From the sequence record PP488543.1: a stretch of 64,000 bases of DNA. One strand, 5' to 3'. Position 1 is the first letter of the stretch. Every line of letters begins with the position of its first letter. The notes below the pieces were generated by a model. It searched no databases. It worked only from the letters and a program-made list of their open reading frames with translations, and had not been told where the DNA came from. Origin of the DNA: Escherichia phage BP9. Positions 17,486 to 63,146 of this stretch are shown here, piece by piece. Made by a program: the position numbers and the translations under genes.

Positions 17486-17689
17486 TCTTTACAAAACAGG
17501 GCTTGTTTTTGTCCTGTTTTTTGTTATACTTATTCCACGGCAGGCACCTGGCGACGGGGGGAGACAACCACCGGGCCTGCCTGTCATATAAGAACTATAA
17601 AAACCGTTGACATCTGCCAGGGGGTGGGGTAACATTTATCTTGAAGGGGCAAAAGTGCCCACACAACAACCAGAAGAGAGGAAAACATT

Positions 17690-17962
17690 ATGTCAAGCTG
17701 GATTAATCAAGAAGTCGAATCACGTTTCAATGCTATTTGGGATCTCATCGAAAAAGAAGACGGCACATCAAGCCCCTACCTCAACAATTTGGAATTCCAT
17801 TTTGTGGAAGCGATGAACGCAGAACATGATCACGAAGGTGGCGCGGATGATTTCGCTAAAGGTTATGGCTTTAACAATGCCAACGAAATGATCGAGGCGG
17901 TCGTACTCCAGGCTGAGGAAGATTATCAATTAAAAACGCTTGAATTCTGCCGCCATAAGTAA
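17690..17962 (+). CDS. hypothetical acidic protein (90 aa)
   Basis: TTGACA-17-TAACAT, leader hairpin GGGGCAAAAGTGCCC, RBS AGAGAGGA. Confidence 0.5.
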   Translation: MSSWINQEVESRFNAIWDLIEKEDGTSSPYLNNLEFHFVEAMNAEHDHEGGADDFAKGYGFNNANEMIEAVVLQAEEDYQLKTLEFCRHK

Positions 17963-18022
17963 TAAGATAATGACACGGGCCAAAAGGCCCACTAATCAGA
18001 ACCGCATAAAGAGGTAAACATC

Positions 18023-18286
18023 ATGAAACGTCTTGATCAGCTCAAACTAGTTCAGTACATGGCCTACAAAGTTCTTGAAGTCCAAAAAGGTAGCAAAAAA
18101 GAGGTTTGCGAGAAAGCATATAAGATCTTTACCCGTAAAAAAGATGATTGGATGTTACGCCAGACCAAAAAAGCCGATATCCTGGGGTACCTGGAAGAAG
18201 AGATCCGACTTGAAGAGCAAGAAGAGATCCGCCGCAGTGAAGCAGATTATCAGGCAGCTTGGGAAAACTGGATGAGTAACAAATAA
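18023..18286 (+). CDS. hypothetical protein (87 aa)
   Basis: RBS AAAGAGG upstream. Confidence 0.5.
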   Translation: MKRLDQLKLVQYMAYKVLEVQKGSKKEVCEKAYKIFTRKKDDWMLRQTKKADILGYLEEEIRLEEQEEIRRSEADYQAAWENWMSNK

Positions 18287-18431
18287 TACAACAAGTTGCA
18301 CGATCAGGGGGGCAATAAAGCCCCTTGATCACATAAAAATTATGCTATCCTTATTGACAAGGATCGGCAGTTTTGCTATATTCTTTTTTGAAGGGAAGTT
18401 GTAAGAAAATTAACTAAGAGGTAAAAACACC

Positions 18432-18851
18432 ATGAACATTAAATCTAATAATCCGGCATATAGCTTTGATAACGCTTTTTGTCACGGCCCGGCGGCGAAA
18501 GGATTCGAAATCGATGGTAAACTAATTATTGTCAATGTTGACGGGGAAGAGGTTGCAGTATATCCGGTGGCAGACGTAAAAAGCCGTTTACAATGCCGCA
18601 TGGATGTTACCGCCTATCAGCTTGATCCGGTCCGCATAGTTGCCCTGGTCCTGGAAGAAGAAATTAAAGCAATGCACCACAGCAACAAGTTTATTGGTGA
18701 CGCTCAAGATAATATGAAGGTATGCCGCCATAAAGTTAATGAAGTGCTTAAAGAATATGGCTTTAAAGATCTGATGATCAAACGTGAGGAAAAATTCCGC
18801 TACCGTAACGACCTGGCAAATCGGATTTTTGAAATATACGAATCATTATAA
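18432..18851 (+). CDS. hypothetical protein (139 aa)
   Basis: TTGACA-17-TATATT promoter-like; RBS TAAGAGG. Confidence 0.55.
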   Translation: MNIKSNNPAYSFDNAFCHGPAAKGFEIDGKLIIVNVDGEEVAVYPVADVKSRLQCRMDVTAYQLDPVRIVALVLEEEIKAMHHSNKFIGDAQDNMKVCRHKVNEVLKEYGFKDLMIKREEKFRYRNDLANRIFEIYESL

Positions 18852-18870
18852 TTTTTTAACTGAATTATCA

Positions 18871-18895
18871 AGGGGCTTAGGCCCCTTTCTTTTTG
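18871..18895 (+). terminator. intrinsic terminator ending the plus-strand early block
   Basis: AGGGGC-TTAG-GCCCCT followed by TTCTTTTT. Confidence 0.6.
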
Positions 18896-19547
18896 TCTGC
18901 TCTTCCCCCCTACCACAAACGGCCCAGCCTGGCAAGTGGAATAATTGACTAGCCATCAATCCCACACACTGTACAAACATACATATAAAATAACTATTGC
19001 ATAATTTTTCATTGTGTGGTAGCAGGGCCATTTTTACACGTTTTTCCTTCCAAAATTGCACGTAATGCAGCATTTGCACAAAATTTAACCTTATGCATAT
19101 CTTCAATAGCTTGTCAACAACTAAAAATCTTTATAAGTCATACACTTACATAACCACAAAAGCGTGTCCTACGTGAAAAATCGGGTGTAACTATAGCCGC
19201 CAGATCTCAGAATTTACGTACGCTCGCCATTCTATAGCCTGCTAAGCATTTATTCCAACCATAGAATAACGGAATAGTCAATACCTGCATAAAATAATTA
19301 TTCGTGTAAACTGCATAACATAAATCAGCTCAGGTGTCAACATTTTTCGTAAACAGTCTGAAATTGTCACGATAGGTTATCATAAACAGAGAAATCTTTA
19401 GTCGTCTAATGTTTACTGTACGTTACTATACTAACTGGAATCATTAGATGACTAATAGAAAGATAAGAAATAATTAACAATACAATTATTTTATCTGTAA
19501 CAATAAGGCAACTATGCAAACGAATGGCATGGCGCGACGGAGTCGCG

Positions 19548-19697
19548 ACATAATATAAAAGCAGTAACCATCACCCCCGTGATAGTTTGTCTGCAAACTA
19601 TTAATCAGATCATAGTTGCCTTATATTTAGTTAATCATGACATAACAAGCAAGGCAACTATAGATCTTCTAATAGTTGCCCTGCTTTTATATTATGT
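19548..19697. repeat. 16-bp inverted repeat pair flanking a ~120-bp core
   Basis: CATAATATAAAAGCAG (19548-19563) and its reverse complement CTGCTTTTATATTATG (19682-19697); flanked by direct repeats ATGCAAACGAATGG(C/T)ATGGC. Confidence 0.5.
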
Positions 19698-19791
19698 CAT
19701 AGATTATTAACTTGCTAATAGTTATCATGCAAACGAATGGTATGGCTTATCATTTCCATGTAAATAGTTAGCTATGTAAACTATTGGTCAT

Positions 19792-19861
19792 GTAAACAGT
19801 AAAGGGCGTGAACAGTAAGCAGGTGAATGGTAATAGCGTGAATAGTGACAGCGTAAACAGT
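19792..19861. repeat. iteron array: 5 x GT(A/G)AA(C/T)(A/G)GT at 15-16-bp period
   Basis: GTAAACAGT 19792, GTGAACAGT 19808, GTGAATGGT 19823, GTGAATAGT 19838, GTAAACAGT 19853. Confidence 0.55.
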
Positions 19862-19865
19862 CAGG

Positions 19866-19962
19866 CATGTCAATTATGTCAATCGTGTTTAATGTTCCCA
19901 GTATGTCAAAGGTGTCATGTTATGTCACTATTGTGTCATATTGTGTCAGTTATGTCAGACAA
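19866..19962. repeat. iteron array: ~10 x (A/T)TGTCA at ~10-bp period
   Basis: catgtcaattatgtcaatcgtg...gtatgtcaaaggtgtcatgttatgtcactattgtgtcatattgtgtcagttatgtcag. Confidence 0.55.
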
Positions 19963-21372
19963 GTTTTTCTCCTCTTTGTCAAGTGCTGCATAAAAATTTA
20001 CAAGCTTGTATGGTAGCATTTTTGCGGCCCTGTTTACATTCAGGAGTGTATGTATAACCCTTGTTGTGTGGGCGTTTAGACGTCTAGACGGTTGGAAGTC
20101 TACAGGTCAATATCTAATCTATTGGCTGCTAACTATATCCCACACAAATAGTAAGAAATATAATTGTTATATGCGTAAACAGTAACCTATGTTATCAATC
20201 CATGTATGTATCGCCAGTGGTGCGCATAATGGGTATTATGTTAAATTGCCCGTAATGATAACTATTCTCACAATGATAGGTATTCTCATTCACCCCGCAA
20301 GATAGGTTGCAAATGTTGTGTCACTGTGTGAACGGCCTCGCCTATTAATTTGCCTCACTGCCTTGATATTTGAGAATTGTTATAAGAATGAGAAGTATTC
20401 CCATTTCGTCCGCCTGGCAGCACTCCAGTCGCTACGGCTCATAACAGGGCAGAACCAGTCCTATTCAGATATTTCTGGCTGGCTCTTCAGGTCTGTGTGG
20501 GAAAAGCCAACCCCTCCGGCGGCGGGGAGGGGGTCAATTAAAAAATTTACGTGGTGTATGAAGCGCTCTTCAGGTAAGGCATGTATTATGGGATGAAATC
20601 CTCTTCAGACAATGATATTTGTTGGTGTGATATTTGCTGGAAAGCCAGATATGACGGGACTCCCGGCGGGGCAGGGGTAGTACAGACAGGGAAAATATGG
20701 GGGATGTAGTTGGGGAAATTGATCAGGTAGGTAGAGTATGGAATATGTTACAGGTATGTTAAATAGGGAGGCTGAATATCTGTAAGATTTGTGTGTAAAA
20801 TCAAAGACTTAAGTGGTGTTGTGGTATTTTCTATAAATAATTCAGGTTTAATAGGTAATATTTGTTTCAATCCACTTTGTGTGGTAAACAGATTCAGATG
20901 AAATTGGTTTACAAGTGTATACATAATATACAAATTAAAGATACAAGAAACCCCCCTCCCCCTTCGGCTACCATTCACCTTTTCCTCTGACTGGTACTTA
21001 AACACTTATTCAGACTCTTTAGGTTATCACCCATATATCATATGGCAGTGACTGGTGTCCTCCGGCCCCTCTTTCGTCACCCGTCCGCTTCGCCATGCTA
21101 ATGCCATAGCCAAATGTTCGGTTGTTCACCCTGTTCACTCAGGTGTATCTCCATACCCTTCAAACCGAAGAGAACAGAAAACCCGAATTACTCGGTAAAA
21201 GAAAAGAGAAGAACTTAATTTTATCAGGATAGGCAAGAATGTCAAGGCATGACTGCTCACTAAACAAGCAAACAGCCATGTGTGGGAGGTAAGTTATTGT
21301 GGTGGTGGGAAATTTAGTTGAAAGATGTGTTATAGGTGCTTCCAGCACTTTAGCTGGGCAGCTAATTGTGTG

Positions 21373-21588
21373 TCAGTCCAGCGGTTCATCCTCTACTTCA
21401 CTGAAATCAATGTTCATGGTCTCCTCCCAACCATCGATCTCAGCACAAGAGTGGAGTTCTTTAGGGTTTACTCCCAAAGCCTCAGCAACAGAGTCTATAT
21501 TTAACACCTCTGGCAGGTATGATTCATCGAATTCAAGGTAAATCAGGCCACGAGTGTTGTCAGCTCCACCAAATATTTCTATCTTCAT
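21373..21588 (-). CDS. hypothetical acidic protein (71 aa)
   Basis: ATG 21588 after AGAGGAG; last gene of minus-strand block. Confidence 0.4.
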   Translation of the reverse strand: MKIEIFGGADNTRGLIYLEFDESYLPEVLNIDSVAEALGVNPKELHSCAEIDGWEETMNIDFSEVEDEPLD

Positions 21589-21708
21589 AAAATCTCCTCT
21601 GGAAATGAGAATGTGAACTGGGTTTATACGTTCCAATGCACAGGAATTATGCACGTTTGCCTCTTCAGGCCATGCTTTAGCATGAGGAACCTGTGTGGGC
21701 TCGGTGCT

Positions 21709-22122
21709 TCATAGTCTACCACCCCTGAACTCTTCGTGCTCAGGCATAATAGAGAACCAGATATCTACGATGTCTTCCCACGTTAGGTCATCAGCCTCAG
21801 GATCTACCTGGAGCGAAGATGGGGAGTCTTTAGAATCGAAGTTTTCCTCTTTAACTGGCTCAGTCAAGGGACATATAGTCACTCCTTTGGATGTCTCTTC
21901 AGATGCATGTGTGTTTATCATGTTCCACCCGTGAGTATTCCGGCAACAGCCGCTATGGACGTAATGATCATCAGGATCACCACCAAAACCTCTGACAATG
22001 TTTTCATTGTGTATCCCATATTCTCCAAACGATGTGTGGATACTATCACTGGAGCGGCAATGTGTCAACAGAAACGCCGCGAGGGTTTGGTTAAAATCCG
22101 AGCGTATGGTGATTTGGGTCAA
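21709..22122 (-). CDS. hypothetical protein (start uncertain, TTG in track)
   Basis: Longest minus ORF in a region with overlapping ORFs on both strands; weak support. Confidence 0.25.
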   Translation of the reverse strand: MTQITIRSDFNQTLAAFLLTHCRSSDSIHTSFGEYGIHNENIVRGFGGDPDDHYVHSGCCRNTHGWNMINTHASEETSKGVTICPLTEPVKEENFDSKDSPSSLQVDPEADDLTWEDIVDIWFSIMPEHEEFRGGRL

Positions 22123-22281
22123 AACGGACGTGCGTTCTCGCTACGCTCGAAAGATAGATTTGTTTGTAGGAAGCTCTTAAACGCTCTGTAATGAGATTAT
22201 CTGTCCAAGGTATGCAATCGTGCACCAGATAAAGAAAAGGACGCCACAGAGCGTCCTAGGTGTCTTAAATTTGATATTTTG

Positions 22282-22581
22282 CTATACCCATGAGGGCTTA
22301 TCAAGGTTGGAGTAGCTGAAAGGTGTCAAAAGGTGATTGTCAAAATCTCTCAAACTATCCAGATCTTTTTCCTCGTCCTGACACCATCTGTGCCTACATT
22401 TATTGTTGTAGTGCATAGAATGCATAGCGTTCTGCAACTTAACAGGCACAAGTGATTCGGGAGTAGATAGTATTGTTGGGTATGCCAGAACCACTTCAAA
22501 CAGTGGAAACACATCGAAACTAAAGTCTACCTCTGCAGAGGTTGATGGCATATAGGAGTATTTAGCCGCCTTTGTAGACAT
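22282..22581 (-). CDS. hypothetical protein (99 aa)
   Basis: ATG 22581 after GAGGTGG; directly follows upstream stop. Confidence 0.45.
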   Translation of the reverse strand: MSTKAAKYSYMPSTSAEVDFSFDVFPLFEVVLAYPTILSTPESLVPVKLQNAMHSMHYNNKCRHRWCQDEEKDLDSLRDFDNHLLTPFSYSNLDKPSWV

Positions 22582-22589
22582 AATCCACC

Positions 22590-22916
22590 TCACACAGGTT
22601 TGATAATACCTTCACCGAATAGCTCTTCGTATCTAATCTTATCCGGATCCCACTCCTGGATAATTTCGAAGACAATATCCAACCCAGGAATAATCACTTC
22701 TCCAGTGTCAAGTTTGGCAAGAACAAAACCAGAAGGCTGAATGGTTTCCCAGTTGCGACGATTGGAATAGAAGACCTCGAAAATATCACCGACCTTGATC
22801 TGTTGATCAAGATGTTCAAGATTCTCTTTCATATAGACGCAGCGGATTTTTCGTGCAGGCCATAGACCGCCTGCATCACGTTCATTCAATTCTTTTACAG
22901 TAATCGGTACACCCAT
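22590..22916 (-). CDS. hypothetical protein (108 aa)
   Basis: RBS AAGGAG upstream of ATG. Confidence 0.5.
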   Translation of the reverse strand: MGVPITVKELNERDAGGLWPARKIRCVYMKENLEHLDQQIKVGDIFEVFYSNRRNWETIQPSGFVLAKLDTGEVIIPGLDIVFEIIQEWDPDKIRYEELFGEGIIKPV

Positions 22917-22969
22917 CTCAAATCTCCTTCATAGATAGTAAAAAGAGGGGCCCAAGCCCCTCTTTGCCA

Positions 22970-23275
22970 TTATTCTACAGAGCGTTTGAAAAGAATGTCT
23001 GCCTCAGACATGTGCTCAACCTCTTCTTCGATTTTAGCTCGACGTTTTTCAGCCTCATATCGAATATCGAACTCGGTAGCCACCAGAGATTTGATGAATT
23101 TAGGAGAATACAGATGATCCTGCTTCTCAACAAGAATGATATCCTTGATGGCATCTTTCAGATCTTTAATCTGAAGTTGGAGTTCCACCAGTTCTTCGAT
23201 TGTTTTGCGAAGGCGATCACGCTCTGCAGTGTCAGAAGGAAGAGAGGTGAACAGTTCAACTTTAGATTTAGCCAT
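22970..23275 (-). CDS. coiled-coil protein (101 aa)
   Basis: RBS AAGGAG; heptad-rich E/K sequence. Confidence 0.5.
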   Translation of the reverse strand: MAKSKVELFTSLPSDTAERDRLRKTIEELVELQLQIKDLKDAIKDIILVEKQDHLYSPKFIKSLVATEFDIRYEAEKRRAKIEEEVEHMSEADILFKRSVE

Positions 23276-62206: not shown

Positions 62207-62281
62207 GCCCTGTTAGCTTAGTGGATAAAGCAGCGGCCTTCTAAGCCGTTGACACTGGTTCGAGTCCAGTACGGGGTGCCA
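62207..62281 (+). tRNA. tRNA-Arg (anticodon TCT)
   Basis: Hand-folded cloverleaf: acceptor GCCCTGT/ACGGGGT, D-stem GCTT/AAGC, anticodon loop CTTCTAA, T-loop TTCGAGT, encoded CCA. Confidence 0.7.
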
Positions 62282-62411
62282 AGTTCTTTTTAATGTAGCT
62301 TACTTTAGCAGAGTAAATCTTCGGCAAGTGGCGGTAACCACTTTACCGATACCTCATAGTTAGTGGTTAGAACACTAGCTATTTTAAAAAGAATTTAAAT
62401 ATTAGTATTTA

Positions 62412-62499
62412 GGTGAGTTAATTCCGTAGGGGTAGCGGGGCAGACTGTAAATCTGTTATCATTGCGATTCGGGTGGTTCGACTCCATCACTCACCACCA
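62412..62499 (+). tRNA. tRNA-Tyr (anticodon GTA), long variable arm
   Basis: Acceptor GGTGAGT/ACTCACC, anticodon loop CTGTAAA, T-loop TTCGACT, CCA encoded; D-arm irregular in hand fold. Confidence 0.55.
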
Positions 62500-62613
62500 A
62501 ATTTATATTTTTAGATGCATAAATCATACAGATAATGGCATTGATATTTATCGTCGTTTATACTAGTCACTAACTGCTCGAAAATCAGTGTCATTATCAG
62601 TATAATTTATAAA

Positions 62614-62704
62614 GGAGGGTAGGGAGCAATGGTGCTCAAGCGGTCTTGAAAACCGTCCCATTGAGGATGACTCGATGATGGTTCGATTCCATTACTCTCC
62701 GCCA
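62614..62704 (+). tRNA. tRNA-Ser (anticodon TGA), long variable arm
   Basis: Acceptor GGAGGGT/ACTCTCC, anticodon loop CTTGAAA, ~20-nt variable arm, T-loop TTCGATT, CCA encoded. Confidence 0.6.
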
Positions 62705-62802
62705 CATTGTTGACCTTGTAATTAAGCGAAAGCCGGAAGCAGAACCGGATTATCAAATGTTACAGTCGTCATCGCCGACTAGCAACATGGTCAACATACT
62801 GA

Positions 62803-62901
62803 GCTAGGTAAGCCCTTTGGCAAGGGCGAGGATTTTTAATCCTGAAAATAGACGAGGTAGTCGTTGAATACATAGGTGGTTCGATTCCACCGCCTAGCAC
62901 C
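62803..62901 (+). tRNA. aberrant tRNA-like element (99 nt; anticodon-loop TTT, oversized variable region)
   Basis: Acceptor GCTAGGT/GCCTAGC, D-arm GCCC/GGGC, loop TTTTTAA, T-arm GGTGG-TTCGATT-CCACC, but ~30 nt between anticodon stem and T-arm. Confidence 0.3.
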
Positions 62902-62906
62902 TTTTT

Positions 62907-62982
62907 GCTGATGTAGCACAATTGGTAGTGCAATTGATTTGTAATCAATAGGTTGCAGGTTCAAGTCCTGCCATCAGCACCA
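62907..62982 (+). tRNA. tRNA-Thr (anticodon TGT)
   Basis: Acceptor GCTGATG/CATCAGC, D-stem GCAC/GTGC, anticodon loop TTTGTAA, T-loop TTCAAGT, CCA encoded. Confidence 0.75.
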
Positions 62983-62983
62983 A

Positions 62984-63058
62984 GGCCCTGTAGCTGGAAG
63001 GTTCAAGCAAGCGACTCATAATCGCCAGACGGTGGTTCAATTCCACCCAGGGCCACCA
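62984..63058 (+). tRNA. tRNA-Met (anticodon CAT; Ile2 not excluded)
   Basis: Acceptor GGCCCTG/CAGGGCC, anticodon loop CTCATAA, T-loop TTCAATT, CCA encoded. Confidence 0.7.
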
Positions 63059-63069
63059 AATAGTAAATA

Positions 63070-63146
63070 CTCCGCGTAGCTCAGCTTGGTAGAGCGCCTG
63101 ATTTGGGATCAGGAGGTCGAGTGTTCGAATCACTCCGTGGAGACCA
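63070..63146 (+). tRNA. tRNA-Pro (anticodon TGG)
   Basis: Acceptor CTCCGCG/CGTGGAG, D-stem GCTC/GAGC, anticodon loop TTTGGGA, T-loop TTCGAAT, CCA encoded. Confidence 0.75.

Follow-up and report, generated by a model that had tools for sequence, protein, structure and literature searches.

What is the role of the cluster of nested direct and inverted repeats that lies inside a 2.5-kb non-coding gap of a Vequintavirus (rV5-like) phage, represented here by a window of 64,000 nucleotides from Escherichia phage BP9 (PP488543.1)? The gap is flanked by converging gene blocks, and the genes adjacent to it are small hypothetical ORFs. Two-way terminators were expected in this gap when the rV5 genome was described, and none was found (PMC3606486); the 2.5-kb "non-coding box" has stayed unannotated since 2013. 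A sequence-only reading had likened the unit to a transposon-like miniature inverted-repeat transposable element (MITE) or to a cruciform-forming origin core. We rejected a protein-coding unit, as the region holds just short overlapping ORFs (30-45 aa) that careful annotators left uncalled.

The unit contains a 20-nt direct repeat, ATGCAAACGAATGG(C/T)ATGGC, in two copies that are 19/20 identical with a spacing of 213. These copies had been recognized before and placed at about 19512 and 19719; their correct positions are 19514-19533 (DR1, ATGCAAACGAATGGCATGGC) and 19727-19746 (DR2, ATGCAAACGAATGGTATGGC), both on the plus strand. They are the only two matches in 64 kb when up to three mismatches are allowed, against 0.03 expected. 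Among 19 relatives, DR1 is invariant except for one substitution (at 19527, in one sequence), and DR2 doubles as the first unit of an ATGYAAAC-type array. Between the direct repeats lies an inverted repeat whose pairing is perfect, as had been noticed, and whose length is 18 nt, not the 16 nt first described. Its left arm, GACATAATATAAAAGCAG (19547-19564), is A-rich with G/C at both ends, and its right arm, CTGCTTTTATATTATGTC (19681-19698), is T-rich; the spacer between them measures 116 nt, in agreement with the core of about 120 bp given earlier. When the 2.5-kb gap was shuffled 2000 times, a perfect inverted repeat with arms of 15 nt or more and a spacer no longer than 150 nt appeared once. 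Both pairs, direct and inverted, occur once in the window. The short repeats noted in the core, GGCAACTAT/ATAGTTGCC, are also present, in four copies of alternating orientation: ATAGTTGCC is found at 19507 (-), 19612 (+), 19653 (-) and 19672 (+), and its count in the whole window is five, against 0.52 expected. Copy a belongs to the 11-mer AAGGCAACTAT (19505-19515, minus strand, the reverse orientation of ATAGTTGCC) and could pair with copy b, while copies b (19612-19622), c (19651-19661) and d (19672-19680) sit inside a chain of overlapping, mutually exclusive ATAGTT/AACTAT palindromes (19582-19680).

In a MITE, the 20-nt repeats would be the target-site duplication. The direct repeats do lie outside the inverted repeats, and one viable isolate, FV3, resembles an empty site, since it lacks the core and retains one direct-repeat copy. 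We looked for the same unit with different flanks in the window and in 50,697 phage records, 72,556 plasmids and 5,426 E. coli genomes, as well as in IMG/VR and in metagenome contigs, and recovered syntenic single copies only. The unit occurs once per genome and in identical context in 119 phage records. The E. coli genomes contain no copy, the single plasmid match is a mis-filed phage genome, and the viral and metagenome contigs, including IMG/VR, add no further copies. Gaps of 13 and 28 nt separate the inverted repeats from the direct repeats, and in most relatives the right-hand gap (arm to DR2) is enlarged by a 46-48-nt insert. The unit has neither terminally placed inverted repeats nor copies in several contexts. 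In addition, the FV3 junction is a DR1/DR2 hybrid that carries the DR2-type polymorphism of its closest relatives; this sequence, from one isolate, fits a recombinational deletion of 213 bp between the direct repeats. The architecture is moreover inherited by descent in three genera, as described below. Conservation in the same context was among the observations that the sequence-only reading had itself named as refuting it, and we reject the MITE, which we regard as hardly credible.

Within Vequintavirus, the core (19498-19700) is the best-conserved stretch of the gap. Identity over 19500-19700 is 97.5-99.8%, versus 87-98% (mostly 88-96%) in the remaining non-coding gap, and it is the loops and spacers that carry the substitutions seen among relatives. 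The stems do not vary, which makes it impossible to test covariation within this genus. The direct repeats are less constant at the right-hand end, where DR2 is missing in V18, a viable isolate that also lacks the arrays described next, and is merged with DR1 in FV3.

The unit lies 260 nt from a 457-bp direct terminal repeat (19958-20414) that marks the physical ends of the virion DNA. YN3 has 458 bp repeated at both record ends and a 459-bp repeat is annotated in Gotham; the record starts of Gotham, EdH4, bov10K2 and YN3 correspond to 20414, and that of Pr121LW to 19958. Terminal repeats of 458-459 bp have been reported for Vequintavirus (PMC7471380, PMC6563267). This organization is of the T7 type, with a short direct terminal repeat that has fixed ends and is abutted by short-repeat arrays (19760-19957). 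Both arrays are on the plus strand and outside the element. The first, GTRAAYNRT, has seven units with a period of 15-16 nt (19760-19861) and differs in copy number between relatives; the second, RTGTCA, has eight units with a period of 9-11 nt (19867-19957) and stops at the terminal-repeat boundary. A canonical terminator after the last plus-strand gene (18870-18887, plus strand), annotated in Murica, EdH4 and Gotham, forms the left border of this zone, and a GC-rich terminator-like hairpin (20511-20532, minus strand) forms the right border. The zone between these border terminators is apparently silent. We found no convincing promoter inside it, and the phage late-promoter motif TGGTAAAATA is absent from the gap; weak leftward sigma-70-like sites are located right of the element, at 19764-19737 and 19718-19691.

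Folding predictions indicate that the unit is a structured domain. The predicted fold of a 261-nt stretch is far more stable than that of shuffled sequences (z of -7.0 and -8.5 for RNA of the two strands and -7.6 for DNA). According to these models, the 18-bp stem closes off a domain of about 150 nt in which two or three hairpins are enclosed. The closing stem has an A-rich 5' arm, a U/T-rich 3' arm and an inner end clamped by G/C pairs, and the domain is preceded by a small GC hairpin and flanked on both sides by the 20-nt repeat. The small hairpin, GCGAC-GGA-GTCGC (19534-19546), abuts the left arm. Hairpin L, AACCATCAC-CCCC-GTGATAGTT (19566-19587), has a loop that varies in length in Murica and a C.A mismatch on the plus strand that is a G.U pair on the minus strand. 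Hairpin R (19647-19686, plus strand) has a 15-bp stem and a 10-nt loop and is followed by UUUUAUAUUAU (-21.2 kcal/mol, z of -6.2). The changes among relatives are located in its loop, and its stem has one A.C on the plus strand that is likewise G.U on the minus strand, so that both stem mismatches in the window are G.U on the minus strand. The earlier cruciform reading holds for the structure-forming geometry; a duplex cruciform calls for a very short spacer and is unlikely with main arms 116 nt apart. Hairpin R has a spacer of 10 nt and one mismatch.

We located the corresponding regions of Septuagintavirus and Phapecoctavirus via the neighbouring 87-aa and 139-aa proteins and found the same architecture in both, beside the homologous repeat boundary and at a similar distance from it (97-307 nt, 216 nt and 208 nt from the terminal repeat in the three genera). 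In all three, the module is on the same side of that boundary (^GACAAG / ^GACAAA / ^AGCAAG), irrespective of gene orientation. Motifs homologous to DR1 occupy the equivalent place in Septuagintavirus (ATTGCCAGAGTATGGAGG) and Phapecoctavirus (AAACGAATCATTCCCAGAGTC). The arm pairs of the three genera, GACATAATATAAAAGCAG/CTGCTTTTATATTATGTC, GACACTATAAAACGAG/CTCGTTTTATAGTGTC and GCTAATAATAAGCCA/TGGCTTATTATTAGC, differ in sequence and are each perfectly complementary, and they share their polarity, with an A-rich 5' arm, a T-rich 3' arm and G/C pairs adjoining the inner domain. A motif-pattern search for further genera (TGGCGCGAC..GCGACA..TATAAAA) found nothing new.

Covariation shows that this fold is under selection. 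The evidence comes from three to four distinct sequences per genus. On the Phapecoctavirus minus strand, none of 61 predicted pairs is broken among three distinct sequences, four changes are compensatory and three are one-sided changes tolerated via G-U; 5 of 500 shuffles reach the score. The compensatory changes include a T-A to C-G replacement in the counterpart of the small GC hairpin (CGCTATG..CATAGCG) and a C-G to T-A replacement in the homologue of hairpin L. In Septuagintavirus, the stem is preserved through different sequences. Since the fold is conserved while the arm sequences have changed, with compensatory changes, it is the fold of a single strand that appears to be selected. The proposal that the repeat geometry marks a real structure-forming element is therefore borne out in three genera, with both the stem and the inner hairpins under selection. 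In our reading, the unit is a module that acts in cis and is conserved near the genome ends of rV5-like phages.

The G-U pairs and the predicted fold energies favour one strand, the minus. In the window, the fold energy is -74.0 kcal/mol on the minus strand versus -64.1 kcal/mol on the plus strand, and the z-scores are -9.2 versus -7.7. In Phapecoctavirus, the minus strand contains five constant G-U pairs and reaches -80.5 versus -60.9 kcal/mol, whereas on the plus strand pairs are lost and the fold is weaker by about 18 kcal/mol. This asymmetry, together with the complete retention of minus-strand pairs in Phapecoctavirus and the several leftward sigma-70-like sites just right of the element, is what would be expected if the minus strand encoded a structured non-coding RNA here, as the outermost unit read inward from the terminal-repeat side, with a regulatory, antisense or decoy role. 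We consider such a gene distinctly unlikely. No candidate promoter is conserved: the Phapecoctavirus site is lost in two of four genomes, and an sRNA started from the promoter-like site at 19718-19691 was rejected because the 46-48-nt insert, which follows 19700 in most relatives, displaces its -35 element. Septuagintavirus has neither the strand asymmetry nor a leftward promoter-like site. There is no clear minus-strand terminator right past the fold, the Rfam 15 covariance models give no match at E<=1 on either strand of 17500-23000, and no tRNA was found near the locus. The G+T-rich composition of the minus strand also favours predicted G-U pairs by itself.

Our preferred, tentative explanation is that the module serves as a two-way transcription stop, or insulator, which depends on structure and stands at the inner border of the terminal-repeat and packaging zone. 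The working form would be one folded strand, in all likelihood the transcript. We infer that the fold acts on RNA polymerase: on one side, the stop would bar polymerase arriving from the last gene block from the repeat arrays and the terminal repeat, where terminase works; on the other, it would halt transcripts that begin in the terminal repeat or run across it before they enter the genes in antisense. The location in a non-coding gap between converging gene blocks supports such a role. So do the predicted hairpins, as hairpin R followed by UUUUAUAUUAU has the canonical shape of a plus-strand intrinsic terminator, with a stable hairpin directly before a U-tract, and the site homologous to hairpin R is a terminator in the Murica annotation; on the minus strand, hairpin L with the other arm is terminator-like, if borderline, with a 5-nt gap before the U-tract. 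The arm polarity shared by the three genera gives the order A-tract, stem, U-tract, a symmetry that two-way terminators have. The insulator is also favoured by the selection on the fold, together with a strand preference that points to RNA over duplex DNA. FV3 is viable without the core, and an accessory insulator therefore fits better than an essential packaging site or origin. If the module is an insulator, the "missing" two-way terminators of this gap are explained.

The likeness to bidirectional intrinsic (Rho-independent) terminators is incomplete. As in these, a stem clamped by G/C pairs lies between a tract rich in A and one rich in U, the location is between converging transcription units, each strand ends in a U-tract, and hairpin R with its U-tract is canonical on the plus strand. 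In contrast, the "stem-loop" here is no simple hairpin, as it is branched and spans 61-116 nt. The local hairpins beside the U-rich arms of Septuagintavirus and Phapecoctavirus are weak or distant and lack the intrinsic-terminator shape, so that the whole branched domain would have to serve as the terminator stem, which is unusual. Little transcription is expected at the element, as strong canonical terminators already stand on both sides, and the lack of a convincing promoter within the zone speaks against the insulator as well. In Phapecoctavirus, where the element is retained, the flanking genes are co-directional, and a two-way stop is not obviously needed there. A literature search for transcriptomes of these phages found none. 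The feature best kept across genera is proximity to the terminal repeat, which points to genome-end biology at least as much as to transcription.

The same surroundings bear on a replication origin or priming site, in which the folded strand or the AT-rich stem would start DNA synthesis near the genome end. The region is rich in repeats and in AT (GC of 25-36% versus about 43%), and T7 has secondary origins near its genome end. T7 primase recognizes sites with a GTC core, and by analogy the GTC cores of the RTGTCA array, which lie on the lagging-strand template at this end, could be primase sites. Nothing specific to an origin emerged to sustain the earlier origin-core claim, and we judge an origin highly unlikely. 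There is no DnaA box in 19100-20040, even with one mismatch allowed, and no enrichment of DnaA boxes in the window; the AT-rich region has no distinct unwinding block, no initiator gene is adjacent, and FV3 lacks the core. Cumulative GC skew peaks at about 20-21 kb, where gene orientation switches, and is accounted for by transcription, as the rV5 authors also concluded (PMC3606486).

It is possible, if doubtful, that the modules of rV5-like (Vequintavirus, Septuagintavirus) and phAPEC8-like (Phapecoctavirus) myoviruses constitute an undescribed family of structured elements that mark the inner border of the terminal-repeat zone. Each would be either a minus-strand non-coding RNA, with a three-way junction and a 15-18-bp AU-rich closing stem, as the outermost transcribed unit, or a folded DNA strand with a part in the duplication or processing of the terminal repeat. 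A folded DNA strand would provide an experimentally tractable handle on the copying of short terminal repeats before packaging. New here are the placement of the virion ends in the box and a fold conserved across two subfamilies on a fixed side of the terminal repeat and at similar distances; an anonymous repeat cluster becomes a defined cis element. The phages of both groups are among the most often isolated E. coli therapy candidates, and in practice the region is one that genome engineers should not alter blindly, as well as a landmark for orienting Vequintavirus assemblies.

A role at the DNA level, as a concatemer-junction element that helps the terminase or replication machinery to recognize, cut or duplicate the terminal repeat, seems to us somewhat unlikely. 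The flanking 20-nt repeats would perhaps be protein sites, and a snap-back hairpin could form in displaced or unreplicated single-stranded DNA, by analogy with the hairpin intermediate and the repeat arrays beside the T7 terminal repeat. These phages have a T7-like DNA polymerase and primase-helicase (PMC3606486). In T7, packaging requires prior duplication of the repeat, and repeat-containing DNA has been reported to form a hairpin (PMC4281155, citing Chung & Hinkle 1990 and Molineux 2006). A role of the module in end processing would bear on the duplication of T7-type terminal repeats, whose mechanism has long been debated as an open question. The constant side of the module in three genera with any gene orientation and the shutting off of the zone by canonical terminators on both sides argue for a DNA-level element. 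The likeness to the T7/T3 concatemer junction extends to a short terminal repeat with fixed ends, a T7-like replisome, an element in unique DNA on one side of the repeat, and short-repeat arrays (SRL/SRR in T7/T3; CCTAAAG arrays in T7) that occupy the space up to the cut site; a pause site and a hairpin intermediate in end processing are known features of that junction. T7 differs in that it encodes its own RNA polymerase, which these myoviruses lack, and it has no sequence similarity here and no comparable multi-hairpin domain closed by a perfect inverted repeat of 15-18 nt. The viability of FV3, without the core, and of V18, without DR2 and the arrays, argues against strict necessity, and the distance to the cut site varies. 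Moreover, the stem mismatches are all C.A on the plus strand, which is the expected 3' single-stranded tail at this end, whereas the asymmetry favours the minus strand.

Two other genome-end systems offer partial parallels. The T5 injection-stop-signal region, non-coding and with direct and inverted repeats, forms part of a 10-kb repeat and is linked to the entry of the DNA in two steps. It resembles the present module as a block of non-coding DNA rich in repeats and palindromes at a terminally repeated genome end; here, however, just about 700 nt of gene-free DNA would lie outside the element, and an entry stop would have no evident purpose. Terminase recognition regions of the lambda cosB type have repeated protein sites around a bend, beside the cut site; in a similar way, the 20-nt motifs of the module stand on either side of a segment that can be deformed, at 100-300 bp from the place of cleavage. 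Compensatory stem changes are not expected for protein sites on duplex DNA, and the candidate motifs here are direct repeats. In Septuagintavirus, the second direct-repeat copy falls within the terminal repeat, 50 nt in, which is in line with a DNA-level role.

The unit, within 19496-19760, is built from two nested pairs of repeats. A 20-nt direct repeat, ATGCAAACGAATGG(C/T)ATGGC, lies at 19514-19533 (DR1) and 19727-19746 (DR2) with 19 of 20 positions identical, and these are the only two window matches at ≤3 mismatches, against 0.03 expected. Inside it, a perfect 18-nt inverted repeat has its arms, GACATAATATAAAAGCAG (19547-19564) and CTGCTTTTATATTATGTC (19681-19698), 116 nt apart; when the surrounding gap was shuffled 2000 times, only one shuffle produced a perfect inverted repeat with arms of ≥15 nt and a spacer of ≤150 nt. 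The sequence-only reading had recognized both pairs, but it placed the direct repeats at about 19512 and 19719 and gave the inverted repeat as 16 bp. The short repeats that it saw inside the core are present as four copies of ATAGTTGCC/GGCAACTAT in alternating orientation within 19507-19680 (five in the window versus 0.52 expected). ATAGTT/AACTAT half-sites between the arms make up a chain of hairpins that overlap and so exclude one another, and on both strands the unit is predicted to fold much more stably than its shuffles (z -7.0, -8.5 and -7.6).

The window belongs to a Vequintavirus (rV5-like myovirus), and the unit sits in a ~2.5-kb gap without credible genes, between plus-strand genes that end at 18851 and minus-strand genes that start near 21373-21654. 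In the rV5 paper this gap is a 'non-coding' box, left featureless, and two-way terminators were expected between genes 163 and 164 and not found (PMC3606486). Canonical terminators close the zone on either side, at 18870-18887 on the plus strand and 20532-20511 on the minus strand. An imperfect 22-nt inverted repeat (82%, spacer 14 nt) at 19398-19455, followed on the minus strand by a U-rich run, may terminate transcripts that leave the element leftward. The physical ends of virion DNA fall within the same gap. The Gotham, EdH4, bov10K2 and YN3 records start at the equivalent of window 20414 and that of Pr121LW at the equivalent of 19958; the YN3 record begins and ends with one exact 458-bp repeat, a 459-bp repeat is annotated in Gotham, and the Vequintavirus literature describes terminal repeats of 458-459 bp with a fixed packaging start (PMC7471380, PMC6563267). 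From these record ends and published repeats, we place the direct terminal repeat at 19958-20414 (457 bp), 260 nt beyond the end of the right arm. Two arrays together occupy the space from the element to the terminal repeat (19760-19957): seven GTRAAYNRT units with a period of 15-16 nt (19760-19861) and eight RTGTCA units with a period of 9-11 nt (19867-19957), the last of which adjoins the cut site. Array copy number varies widely among relatives, in which 97-307 nt separate the element from the terminal repeat. Read on the minus strand, the RTGTCA units are TGACA(Y), three of them perfect TTGACA; on the plus strand they contain GTC cores, which we take to resemble T7 primase sites. Further along, a non-coding block at 20950-21250, 96-100% identical in nine relatives, begins with a C-run, ACCCCCCTCCCCCTTCGG, resembling one with which the Septuagintavirus terminal repeat ends; a further structured element, or a small gene that escaped annotation, may lie in this block.

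The sequence-only reading had likened the unit to a MITE and proposed searching for it with different flanks. The locus matches 119 phage records (77-98% identity), once in each and always in identical context. The window has no second copy, and none of 5,426 complete E. coli genomes contains the unit. Among plasmids it occurs in a single 137.5-kb record, itself a Vequintavirus genome, and in no other; pattern scans of viral and metagenome contigs yielded syntenic Vequintavirus contigs and, in unrelated contigs, chance palindromes, and nothing more. A single-copy syntenic unit whose arms do not adjoin the direct repeats fails the defining tests of a MITE, an identity to which we give practically no credence. 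The plasmid record (CP057073.1, E. coli) and 18 'Campylobacter phage' records (MG0656xx) match window 19200-20200 at 81-95% identity and have lengths that fit whole Vequintavirus genomes; C15, the one of the 18 that was inspected, is marked UNVERIFIED. FV3 (NC_019517.1, 1875-1894) resembles an 'empty site', with one repeat copy and nothing between. Its junction is a hybrid, ATGCAAACGAATG from the left part of DR1 joined to TCATGGC of the DR2 variant of the nearest relatives, and is found in one isolate only (1 of 118 records), which fits a 213-bp loss through recombination between the direct repeats. If the FV3 record is right, plaques can form without the core. V18 is without DR2 and the first array.

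Among 13-19 relatives, 19500-19700 is 97.5-99.8% identical with 90-98% invariant columns, against mostly 88-96% identity in the remaining non-coding gap, and 19700-19950 is an insertion/deletion hot spot. Both arms and the GC hairpin beside the left arm (19534-19546) are invariant, as are the four 9-mers except for one change at 19660 in V18; DR1 has a single change, at 19527, in one sequence. The few core substitutions fall in the loop between the third and fourth 9-mers (19662-19669), in the spacer 19623-19646 and at single unpaired positions. Relatives also carry inserts, absent from the window, after 19700 and 19642 (L001, L007, L008, L012-L015): most have a 46-48-nt insert, AGAAACACCCGAAGGGGTGACCAAAGGTCACCTGGCATAGCCAGCGAA, with three small GC hairpins, and V5 and LL12 have an additional 33-nt insert, both inserts containing GGCATAGCC mini-palindromes.

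Because invariance cannot prove pairing, we used proteins encoded next to the unit to reach outgroups and looked for the fold there. The 87-aa neighbour led to Septuagintavirus (A5-4, A7-1, W70, A73, LTH01 and UPEC06) and the 139-aa neighbour to Phapecoctavirus, a genus of another subfamily (Schickermooser, phiWec190, ABPW7 and ECO340P2). BLAST of the gap against these genera gave no alignment to the window except scraps. Downstream of the same gene, both have the window's architecture: a DR1-related motif, a GC-rich segment or hairpin, a perfect inverted repeat enclosing a two-hairpin domain, and 208-216 nt on to the start of the terminal repeat. The arms are perfectly complementary in each genus, as GACATAATATAAAAGCAG/CTGCTTTTATATTATGTC in Vequintavirus, GACACTATAAAACGAG/CTCGTTTTATAGTGTC in Septuagintavirus and GCTAATAATAAGCCA/TGGCTTATTATTAGC in Phapecoctavirus. 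The first terminal-repeat boundary is homologous across the three (^GACAAGTTTTTCTCC, ^GACAAAACTCTCTTC and ^AGCAAGTTCTCTT), the window's ^GACAAG being conserved in Septuagintavirus and recognizably homologous in Phapecoctavirus. The second, GCC^TGGCAGCA, is common to Vequintavirus and Septuagintavirus, and Phapecoctavirus (GCGTTA^AGCACTT) has only the AGCACT core in common. The UPEC06 record (MW250786.1, L045/L046), labelled 'partial genome', begins and ends with the same 462 bp, an exact duplication that is probably an unannotated, unreported Septuagintavirus terminal repeat, since its boundaries match those of Vequintavirus.

With few sequences available, the covariation figures are indicative rather than conclusive: in Phapecoctavirus all 61 predicted minus-strand pairs are kept in three distinct sequences, four having changed on both sides (one via three pair types) and three on one side via G-U, and the pairing score was reached by 5 of 500 column shuffles, with slid controls 24-50% paired. 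One inner stem in Septuagintavirus is kept through three different sequences and loop lengths. The same fold in three lineages is hard to explain, from these alignments, unless the unit is under selection as a fold. Conservation in one context, which the sequence-only reading would have held against the unit if no structural role appeared, is accompanied by a fold kept in three genera.

We compared the strands for the form in which this fold might act. The window's two stem mismatches read C.A on the plus strand and G.U on the minus strand, and Phapecoctavirus has five constant minus-strand G-U pairs. Predicted energies, in which the G+T-rich minus strand inflates G-U pairing, are lower for minus than for plus in the window (-74.0 versus -64.1), in Schickermooser (-80.5 versus -60.9) and in the Phapecoctavirus consensus (-79.3 versus -61.6, a gain of ~18 kcal/mol); Septuagintavirus has no strand asymmetry. 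These pairs and energies favour a minus-strand single strand, most simply RNA, running from the terminal-repeat side inward. A minus-strand non-coding RNA, which we consider doubtful, is supported by the G-U evidence, but no conserved promoter or terminator delimits it. The cruciform of the sequence-only reading, as a duplex structure, is unlikely for arms 61-116 nt apart and fails the defining test of a very short spacer.

Of the three readings left, the one that we tentatively favour is a two-way, structure-dependent transcription stop or insulator. Although their sequences have turned over, the three genera all keep an A-rich 5' arm, a U-rich 3' arm and a G/C clamp at the inner end, a polarity that gives the element the symmetry of two-way intrinsic terminators. 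Hairpin R (19647-19686) with UUUUAUAUUAU is a predicted canonical plus-strand terminator (-21.2 kcal/mol), two-way terminators had been expected at this location, and FV3 does without the element. However, the canonical terminators on both flanks should by themselves keep the zone silent, Septuagintavirus and Phapecoctavirus have weak local hairpins, and the Phapecoctavirus neighbour genes are co-directional. A DNA-level role at the concatemer junction, which we consider rather unlikely, would fit the constant proximity to the same terminal-repeat boundary, the T7-like replisome, the Septuagintavirus repeat copy inside the terminal repeat and a setting like that of T7, where arrays also reach the cut site; FV3 and V18 are viable, however, spacing to the terminal repeat varies, and the strand asymmetry points the opposite way. 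The origin core suggested from sequence is very unlikely; the unit fails the defining origin tests. A stop or insulator and a role at the junction are not exclusive: in T7, packaging is linked to the stalling of RNA polymerase at the concatemer junction. That junction has been mentioned as a terminator (bioRxiv 10.64898/2026.02.12.705533).

We regard the element as a structured sequence acting in cis at the end of a phage genome, with a fold conserved across two subfamilies. It falls in no Rfam family, no description of it was found in the literature searched, and genome ends are not treated in the Septuagintavirus paper. Elsewhere in the window, within the tRNA cluster at 62207-63146, ARAGORN calls a 99-nt tRNA-like gene (62803-62901) with a four-base anticodon (atcc), which may be an intron-containing or degenerate tRNA.
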